A stretch of DNA of 30,259 nucleotides from a virus (taxonomy: Duplodnaviria; Heunggongvirae; Uroviricota; Caudoviricetes): positions 1 through 30,259 of the IMG/VR virus record IMGVR_UViG_2718217795_000001; one strand, 5' to 3'. The position numbers were made by a program, and so were the translations under genes. The first letter of the stretch is position 1, and the number at the start of each line of letters is the position of its first letter. The notes beneath the pieces were generated by a model. The model saw nothing but the letters and a program-made list of their open reading frames with translations. It ran no database searches and was not told the origin of the DNA. This document shows, piece after piece, positions 12,835-14,380 of the stretch.

Positions 12835-13028
12835 AGGTTCAGGGTCTCCGCCGTGGGTGATGTTTCAACGTCTGGCAGGTCAATCGCCGTGCCATGCGGC
12901 AGAATGACGCCCAGCTCAGACAGGCCGGGATTAGCCTGCAGCACCGTCTCGACCACGCCCTCAGTGCGCCCGTAATACCGGACGCAAAGCGCGTCGAGGG
13001 TATCGCCCTGCATCGCGTAGACTTTCAT
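12825..13028 (-). CDS. X: Tail protein X (LysM-like), 67 aa
   Basis: Same length as P2 gpX and closely similar by eye (GDTLDA-CVRYYGRTEGVVETVL motif). Confidence 0.88.
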   Translation of the reverse strand: MKVYAMQGDTLDALCVRYYGRTEGVVETVLQANPGLSELGVILPHGTAIDLPDVETSPTAETLNLWD

Positions 13029-13537
13029 CAGAGCTGGCCCACGATGCAGCGCGGCTTATCCTGCAGGCGCGAGACCGACCAGCGCATATCCCGCCACAGG
13101 TCATCAATGGTGGTTTCGACGCTGTCGGCTTTTTTGTCACCCTTGCCGGTGGCCTCAACCCCGCGATAACGCTCATACAGGGTGGCTGTCGCCATCGCCG
13201 TCACGGCGCTCAGGTAGTGGAAAACACGCACATTCTCGCCGTCGATTTCCTCGGCGTCAGGCACGTCGGCCAGTGTCTTAAACCCGGCGGCAATCTGGCG
13301 CAGCCGGTAGTCGTAAAGCTCTGCATTGGTTTCCGCCATGCCGGTCTTGATGGCGTTGCGCAGGCGCGCATCGGAAACCGTCTGCTCAAGGCGCATCAGC
13401 TCGCGCACCCGCTTCGGATCCACATCAGGGAAAAAGAACGTGTTTTTAATCACTGCGTCGCCCGTCTCCGGTGCTGGAATCACCACGCCCGGTACGTCCT
13501 GCGGTTCGTCGGGCTGATTCAGTATTACTGTCGTCAT
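13028..13537 (-). CDS. L: Head completion protein L, 169 aa
   Basis: P2 gpL-like sequence and size; ATG at 13535-13537. Confidence 0.85.
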   Translation of the reverse strand: MTTVILNQPDEPQDVPGVVIPAPETGDAVIKNTFFFPDVDPKRVRELMRLEQTVSDARLRNAIKTGMAETNAELYDYRLRQIAAGFKTLADVPDAEEIDGENVRVFHYLSAVTAMATATLYERYRGVEATGKGDKKADSVETTIDDLWRDMRWSVSRLQDKPRCIVGQL

Positions 13538-13630
13538 GACAACCTCATTAGGTTGGGCGGTGGACGCCGGTCGCCGTCAGGGTCAAAACCCGCTTTGACC
13601 GGCGTGCCGCCCGGCTCGGGGAGCGTTCAG

Positions 13631-14380
13631 TTAACCGGCGGTTTTTACCGCCTTTGGTGGACGCCCGCGCTTTGCCGCCGGTCTGGTGGCAGGTTTGCGC
13701 GTGCGCGGTTTAGTCGTTTTACGGGGCGCGGCATCGGGCTTAGGCTTCAATGCCCGCTCCAGTCGCTCAATCTCTTTGCGCACACCGGCATTGCGGTCGA
13801 GCTGCATTGCGCGCTGAAACTGCGCCAGCGCTTCGGCGTCCTGACCGGCATCGCGCAGGGTCAGGCCAGTCACCTTATGCAGACGAGCGCGCACCATATC
13901 GGGAACGTCAGCACCGTCGGTCAGGCTGAGGGTGGTCAGCAGTAATGCGAGGTCGACAGGCTCACCGGCATCGCGCAGGCGCAGCGCGGCAAGTGCCACC
14001 TCCTCAACCAGCATGTAAGGCGTGGTTCGGCGATGGTTAGAGGTGAGGCCGTATTTCAGCGCGTAGGGCGCAATTTCCAGCGCGCCAGCGATATCACCGG
14101 CATCGAGACGCCACAGCATGACGGTCATGACAATGTCATCCTGCGCACCACGGCCATCAGCCAGCACACCGGCGACCCACGGCGCATAGAACGGCAACAG
14201 CTCGCGCTTTTTCGCGGCTTTCAGTTCGTTTGAACGGATGGTTTTTAACGTGCGACGGTCATCGGCCAGCTTTACCAGCATCTGCTCGTAGGCGGTTGCA
14301 TGGCGCAGCGGGGCTTGTTCCCGCTGCGCGGCTTGAGAGGCCGAGACCCGCATCATGTGACGCTGTGCGGGGCTCGTCAT
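13631..14380 (-). CDS. M: Terminase endonuclease (small) subunit M, 249 aa
   Basis: P2 gpM-like sequence with basic Lys/Arg/Pro-rich C-terminal tail; order O-N-M-L. Confidence 0.85.
   Translation of the reverse strand: MTSPAQRHMMRVSASQAAQREQAPLRHATAYEQMLVKLADDRRTLKTIRSNELKAAKKRELLPFYAPWVAGVLADGRGAQDDIVMTVMLWRLDAGDIAGALEIAPYALKYGLTSNHRRTTPYMLVEEVALAALRLRDAGEPVDLALLLTTLSLTDGADVPDMVRARLHKVTGLTLRDAGQDAEALAQFQRAMQLDRNAGVRKEIERLERALKPKPDAAPRKTTKPRTRKPATRPAAKRGRPPKAVKTAG

Follow-up and report, generated by a model that had tools for sequence, protein, structure and literature searches.

The spacer between the terminase gene M and the head-completion gene L of a P2/186-like phage holds a folded element. 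Comparison shows that, in most of the P2/186-like lineages sampled, mutations have preserved its base pairs. We consider the structure very probably real and strongly selected. Its most likely role is to set the expression strength of L and of the genes after L, and it is apparently an uncatalogued cis-acting structured element in an operon spacer. The window, which is the whole 30,259-nt stretch of DNA that was analysed, is a phage-186-like genome (Peduoviridae, Eganvirus). Identity over the 601 bases around the element is 99.8% to Klebsiella phage RCIP0057, 93.7% to phage 186 and ~70% to P2.

The late genes lie on the minus strand of the window. M, an ORF at 13631–14380 (minus strand), encodes the small terminase subunit and is gene R of phage 186 and the homologue of P2 M. 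L, an ORF at 13028–13537 (minus strand), encodes the head-completion protein and is gene Q of 186. The ORFs confirm the 93-bp gap between them (13538–13630) recorded in the first-pass annotation, and in nearly all lineages examined the M–L spacer measures 92–111 nt. The UAA stop codon of M (13631–13633, minus strand) lies 6 nt upstream of the first hairpin of the element. The start codon of L is at 13535–13537 (minus strand), taken from the ORF, and the sequence has a Shine-Dalgarno region for L, GAGGUU, at 13540–13545 (minus strand), the spot equivalent to that where a ribosome-binding site is annotated in phage Midge. Searches of the M–L junction for a sigma-70-like promoter and for the late-promoter dyad TGT-N12-ACA returned none. 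An ORF of 242 aa runs antisense through L, the element and M on the plus strand (13217–13945), and looks like a by-product of G+C-rich coding DNA and not a gene.

The covariance model R1, built from enterobacterial sequences alone, has a single significant match in the 30-kb window, at 13551–13628 on the minus strand (88 bits, E 6e-17), which gives an intercistronic element that measures 78 nt as mRNA. From 5′ to 3′ it consists of a small C-loop hairpin, a single-base linker and a long hairpin with a near-invariant base, a freely covarying upper stem and a tip that is free to vary. Hairpin 1 (GCUC-CCC-GAGC, 13614–13624, minus strand) has a 4-bp stem and a loop of C alone, and is also predicted independently by RNAalifold. 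Its third stem pair covaries (G-C 45, U-A 25, A-U 3), while the three loop columns are C in 77/77, 76/77 and 77/77 distinct sequences. The linker to the long hairpin is one base, C, or two bases, CA, in the P2 type. The long hairpin opens with a basal helix of GGGCGG (13607–13612, minus strand) and CCGCCC (13555–13560, minus strand), which is 100% paired and shows compensatory changes in two of its six pairs, for example GGACGG/CCGUCC in loci L065–L068 and AGGCGG/CCGCCU in Burkholderia and Ralstonia phages. In phiCTX the basal helix is CGCCGG/CCGGCG. Between basal and middle helices a single C is bulged at 13606 (minus strand), a C in 77/77 distinct sequences, and it faces an unpaired CCA at 13561–13563 (minus strand) that reads CCA in 75/77 and UCA in 2/77 distinct sequences, leaving its second and third positions invariant.

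Above this asymmetric loop the middle helix pairs ACGCCGGUC (13597–13605, minus strand) with GACCGGCGU (13564–13572, minus strand), the two arms of an inverted repeat that correspond respectively to the right and left arms of the outer repeat discussed below as read on the plus strand. Pair probabilities in this helix are 0.98–1.0 and compensatory changes are seen in all nine of its pairs (alignment A5), with variants that include ACGCCGGUC/GACCGGCGU, ACGAUGGCC/GGCCAUCGU, ACACAGGCC/GGCCUGUGU and UCGCUGGUC/GACCGGCGA. The apical region (13573–13596, minus strand) contains a short GGGU/ACCC helix and is variable in length; its pairs are 72–79% paired with some covariation. Directly after the basal helix stands AACCU (13550–13554, minus strand), which is predicted to pair with the Shine-Dalgarno region of L.

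Several further features of the sequence in and around the element were noted. The 3′ strand CACCGCCC (13555–13562, minus strand) matches eight consecutive bases of 16S rRNA, in its universally conserved region near position 1400, an identity that may be a coincidence of G+C-rich sequence. The decamer GGTGGACGCC is present twice, at 13559–13568, where it covers part of the 3′ arm and the CCA, and at 13656–13665 inside M, where it forms the codons G-R-P-P. The copy in M could pair transiently with the 5′ arm of the element during transcription, although the duplication is probably a coincidence since other lineages vary at synonymous sites. A second hairpin, GGCGGU-AAAA-ACCGCC (13637–13652, minus strand), lies in the 3′ end of M, 3 nt before the M stop codon. 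It is kept in many related loci with other sequences (GCCGGUU/AACCGGC, GGCGA/UCGCC), takes the form GGCUGG...CCAGCC in Pectobacterium, Yersinia and Serratia loci, and is absent from P2.

The first-pass annotation had described nested inverted repeats in this spacer, with the perfect 7-bp stem as the main feature. Both repeats are present. The inner one is a perfect 7-bp repeat with a 6-nt spacer, GGTCAAA (13581–13587) and TTTGACC (13594–13600), exactly as had been given. The outer one, CGCCGGTC/GACCGGCG, is also where it had been placed but was undercounted at 8 bp, as in full it is a 9-bp repeat of ACGCCGGTC (13564–13572) and GACCGGCGT (13597–13605). The two are not nested. Both use GACC at 13597–13600, so that only one of them can form. 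Folding of the transcribed strand, which had been proposed as a check, favours the outer 9-bp helix and predicts that the inner hairpin never forms: the best fold with the inner hairpin reaches −35.1 kcal/mol against −43.7 kcal/mol for the fold that uses the 9-bp helix, and because of this 8.6 kcal/mol difference the pair probability of the inner stem is ~0 in the folded mRNA. Nor is the inner stem the main feature of the spacer, as most of the repeat (13581–13600) falls in the variable apical region and it is lineage-specific, with phage 186 having just 4 bp of it. Perfect 7-bp stems with loops of 3–8 nt number 31 in the window, compared with 13.5 ± 4.2 in dinucleotide shuffles, and the inner 7-bp hairpin is at chance level and incidental. 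The interval once assigned to the whole feature, 13565–13604, takes in just the middle of the structure at 13551–13628. Two other points have held up. The hairpin is not followed by a U-run on the mRNA strand of the window, and the outer repeat, whose conservation in related phages had been set as a test, is kept across the phage family with compensatory changes. The folding energy of the single sequence is only mildly unusual (z = −1.95); the argument for the outer repeat as a real helix is a comparative and not a thermodynamic one.

That comparative argument begins with an alignment of the spacers of the window, 186, PSP3, Midge, ENT4, P2, one Klebsiella phage and one Yersinia phage. Its middle, the site of the inner hairpin, is the least conserved part, and the flanks GCUCCCCGAGCC-GGGCGGCACGCCGG and ACCGGCGUCCACCGCCC are nearly invariant. 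Measured against P2, Klebsiella phage ST147-VIM1phi7.1 and Yersinia phage vB_YenM_56.17, the arms are 83–100% identical, compared with 58–73% for the flanking coding DNA and 44–60% for the apical part. Unguided, RNAalifold recovers from 63 distinct sequences the 4-bp hairpin with its CCC loop, the 6-bp basal helix and a middle helix of 8–9 bp. In this 63-sequence alignment (A3), 96.8% of cells pair as against 31–46% when the partner columns are slid, compensatory changes occur in 9/19 pairs, and the observed values were reached by none of 500 shuffles. Once distant phages are added compensatory changes occur in 17/22 pairs, a figure that leans towards structure because the enlarged alignment was fitted to the model.

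The element is widespread and tied to one position. One genome per bacterial species was scanned with a gpL alignment, and this yielded 73 enterobacterial prophage loci. All but one of these carry the element upstream of L. The exception, L075 of Yokenella regensburgei, is without it at ~1050–1200; an incomplete L match (residues 1–131) and unrelated DNA upstream of L suggest that this prophage is rearranged. R1 also finds matches between M and L in ten distant phages (E 3e-9 to 3e-5), namely SopEPhi, a Klebsiella Kapieceevirus, a P88-like phage, phiT5282H, Kp4848-1 and Kp4860-2, together with Aeromonas LPM4, Ralstonia RSY1, Burkholderia KS5 and Pseudomonas phiCTX. The score is weaker in a Mannheimia phage. 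R1 gives one match per locus, just upstream of L, in 90/93 sources, and the element is present in 55/55 phiCTX-like contigs. A pattern scan of viral contigs blind to context returned 80 loci, eight of which pass the model, and all eight lie between M and L homologues. Among E. coli genomes having the region it occupies one place per genome in 122/122, and this, with the one model match in the window, does not fit repetitive extragenic palindromes of the REP type, which come in many copies per host genome. A broad gpL alignment was too divergent for a locus search and was replaced by two narrower ones. The canonical element was found in none of the 80 closest relatives of the Vibrio K139-type gpL. 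Most of the Vibrio K139-like and HP1-like relatives inspected (viral contigs L293–L372, ~770–900) have another conserved long hairpin in the M–L gap. In the HP1-like contigs L335, L342, L357 and L367 it is followed by a U-run of 4–6, U6 in three of the four, and is terminator-like. Common to the family is a long stable hairpin directly after M, with a U-tract in some lineages.

The element is most simply a fold of the late-operon mRNA. In its reliable helices G-U cells outnumber A-C cells by 23 to 7 on the late-mRNA strand, a pattern that single-stranded DNA of the same strand would share. The alignment folding energies do not separate the strands (antisense −33.5 kcal/mol, compared with −31.4 to −31.7). 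An RNA role is favoured because the element always has a stop codon on one side and a ribosome-binding site on the other. The minimum-free-energy fold of the window stacks an AACCU/AGGUU helix right beside the basal helix. This layout is also predicted for 40/50 distinct enterobacterial sequences, although the predicted helix is just 3–5 bp and the 50 sequences are related. In some distant members, L152 among them, the element lies further from L.

Our results are consistent with a model, to which we give an even chance, in which the M–L junction is a cis-acting expression boundary that sets the head genes O, N and M apart from L and the tail and lysis genes. The very stable hairpin would form or protect the 3′ end of the O-N-M message, with an endonucleolytic cut at or just past the hairpin base preceding protection, or, in relatives with a U-tract, with leaky termination in place of the cut. 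The hairpin would also act as a platform for the pairing of AACCU with the Shine-Dalgarno AGGUU of L, which would keep independent initiation at L low. The net effect would be that less product is made from L and from the tail and lysis genes that follow. Such a role is hinted at by the HP1-like hairpin and U6 in the same gap and by the predicted pairing of the L Shine-Dalgarno region. Long irregular spacer hairpins with an internal loop near the base, placed at the boundary of highly and weakly needed gene products, are likewise found as the RNase III sites of the T7 early genes and as operon-stabilising stem-loops. The element has the shape of a T7-type RNase III site, with helices of 6, 9 and 3–4 bp, the C/CCA loop and an apical internal loop. 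It differs from T7-type and stabilising hairpins in that its helices are far richer in G+C, and from simple stabilisers in that the sequence of its base is conserved from phages of Enterobacterales hosts to those of Burkholderia. Very G+C-rich helices are poor RNase III substrates, which counts against the boundary. So do the shortness of the predicted Shine-Dalgarno helix, the wider spacing to L in some distant members and the neutral folding energies of the two strands. A pure stabiliser or Shine-Dalgarno occluder, moreover, would need no invariant bulged C and CCA. Structure alone leaves unexplained why the bulged C and CCA, the G-C pairs next to them and the hairpin 1 C-loop are near-invariant, which implies a specific partner; the invariant hairpin base would be where a trans-acting factor docks, be it a nuclease or a protein that binds RNA.

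If that partner were a dedicated regulator, the element could instead be a translational operator, in which a phage or host protein binds the invariant base to repress or activate translation of L, and in which translation of L may be coupled to that of M across the folded spacer. The M–L spacer is indeed structured beside a ribosome-binding site, and a protein site would fit the pattern of unpaired bases and closing pairs that are invariant near the hairpin base, below a freely varying distal stem. The hairpin takes up the spacer almost entirely, leaving 6 nt between it and the M stop and 17 nt between it and the L AUG. The E. coli str operon offers a parallel in its rpsL-rpsG spacer, which is ~96 nt and whose fold brings the upstream stop near the downstream start. 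This folded intercistronic region before the regulated cistron likewise has conserved unpaired nucleotides. S7 binds the intercistronic region ahead of its own cistron and acts on coupled translation only (review PMC10931766). The element shares neither sequence nor Rfam similarity with the S7 operator, however. An operator appears unlikely given that no candidate for the binding protein was identified and that distant members place L anywhere from 16 to >60 nt away. As a binder, the basic tail at the C terminus of M was rejected, since in Pectobacterium loci M ends in ...AAASR with the element still present. A different partner is implied if the hairpin mimics a tRNA acceptor of the pre-tRNA-His kind, so that host tRNA-processing enzymes would split the late operon message. 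Cleavage by RNase P would fall at the bulged C, trimming by RNase E or exonucleases would follow beyond the CCA, and a stable hairpin RNA of ~45 nt ending in CCA might be released; if this is true, that RNA may have a function of its own. The near-invariant CCA immediately 3′ of a covarying helix and the invariant unpaired C on the 5′ side are suggestive of such a mimic. Bacterial RNase P cuts mRNAs, operon spacers and phage regulatory RNAs, and cleaves pre-tRNA-His at N(−2)/N(−1); its non-tRNA substrates, such as pre-4.5S RNA, the P1/P7 C4 precursor and operon spacers, likewise have a helix followed by CCA and share with the element a single unpaired base at the would-be cleavage site and a phage setting (PMC4919922). 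RNase E is reported to cut 1–3 nt past the encoded CCA of tRNA precursors (PMC2190699). In contrast to these substrates, the CCA of the element is internal, flanked by a stable helix, and a tRNA-like elbow is absent. Leader and trailer are locked in the 6-bp G-C helix (100% paired), an expected obstacle to RNase P, and the element lacks both a G at +1 and a U at −1. ARAGORN found nothing tRNA-like, and the tRNA-like and C4 families of Rfam gave no match, which together make the mimic decidedly improbable.

Three further readings place the signal in replication or transcription. A hairpin on the strand displaced in rolling-circle replication might serve as a single-stranded lagging-strand site for primosome or helicase loading, as the complementary-strand origins in intergenic DNA of phiX174 and G4 do. 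In P2-type phages protein A makes the nick at which replication starts and, to our knowledge, the lagging-strand start site is undefined. DNA of the same strand would show equal covariation and an equal surplus of G-T over A-C, folding energy favours neither strand, and there is a single copy per genome. Such a DNA signal is nonetheless very unlikely. Every lineage has the element confined to the space that separates a stop codon from a ribosome-binding site, the anti-Shine-Dalgarno bases abut the helix, and the same gap holds a hairpin even where the sequence differs, all of which a role at the level of the message fits better. A leaky intrinsic terminator or attenuator that stops a fraction of polymerases after M would account for a G+C-rich stem-loop on the transcript at an operon-internal boundary, and in P88-like and HP1-like relatives a U-tract is added (U6 within 2 nt of the stem). 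In the record of Mannheimia phage vB_MhM_587AP1 the depositors marked both a promoter and a rho-independent terminator within the upper portion of the homologous hairpin (L086, 367–408), where the full structure is without a U-run after it. In the window, however, AACCUAAUGAGG and not a U-tract comes after the stem, U-tracts are likewise missing from the versions in phiCTX-like, Aeromonas and Burkholderia phages, and a terminator scan at the M–L junction gave no minus-strand match. The stem is also far longer than that of an intrinsic terminator and is broken by internal loops, being a ~60-nt hairpin with a 1x3 internal loop near its base and a variable branched tip rather than a compact stem with a loop of 3–8 nt. 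We thus hold termination in the window to be extremely unlikely. Equally slight is the chance that the element is a processive antiterminator which modifies RNA polymerase in cis for the long L-to-S segment. HK022 put RNA consists of two stem-loops separated by one unpaired base, and the element too has two hairpins one base apart with conserved unpaired bases, but it lies three genes downstream of the promoter, strong terminators are not predicted downstream within the operon, and an Rfam match is absent. The polarity of amber mutations in the P2 late operons also counts against antitermination. Three other ideas were tried and dropped. A switch pairing the C-run of hairpin 1 with GGGCGG fails by eye in L065–L068, phiCTX and Mannheimia, which alter the basal helix and leave hairpin 1 unmatched. 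A K-turn and a mimic of signal-recognition-particle RNA do not fit the loop-flanking sequences.

Searches of existing resources returned no prior description of the element. Rfam 15 has nothing overlapping it in the window at E up to 10; its one match nearby, at 13 bits (13637–13667, in the 3′ end of M), is a chance one, and seven relatives gave just sub-threshold chance matches to microRNA models. ARAGORN places no tRNA or tmRNA at the element. No description was found in the literature, although the original P2 sequence paper may carry an early mention of a stem-loop. A candidate source, PMC10380284, concerns an unrelated prophage gene.

Phages 186 and P2 are textbook temperate phages whose late operons are usually described as controlled by promoters only. 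Within such an operon lies a non-coding structure whose conservation exceeds that of the neighbouring genes. Its bulged C, CCA and basal helix make a small and sharply defined target for mutagenesis, and the covariance model is ready for use in annotating P2-like prophages. The presence of the element across enterobacterial, Aeromonas, Pasteurellaceae, Pseudomonas, Burkholderia and Ralstonia phages suggests that a post-transcriptional control point has gone unrecognised, which would divide the head genes from those for head completion, tail and lysis.
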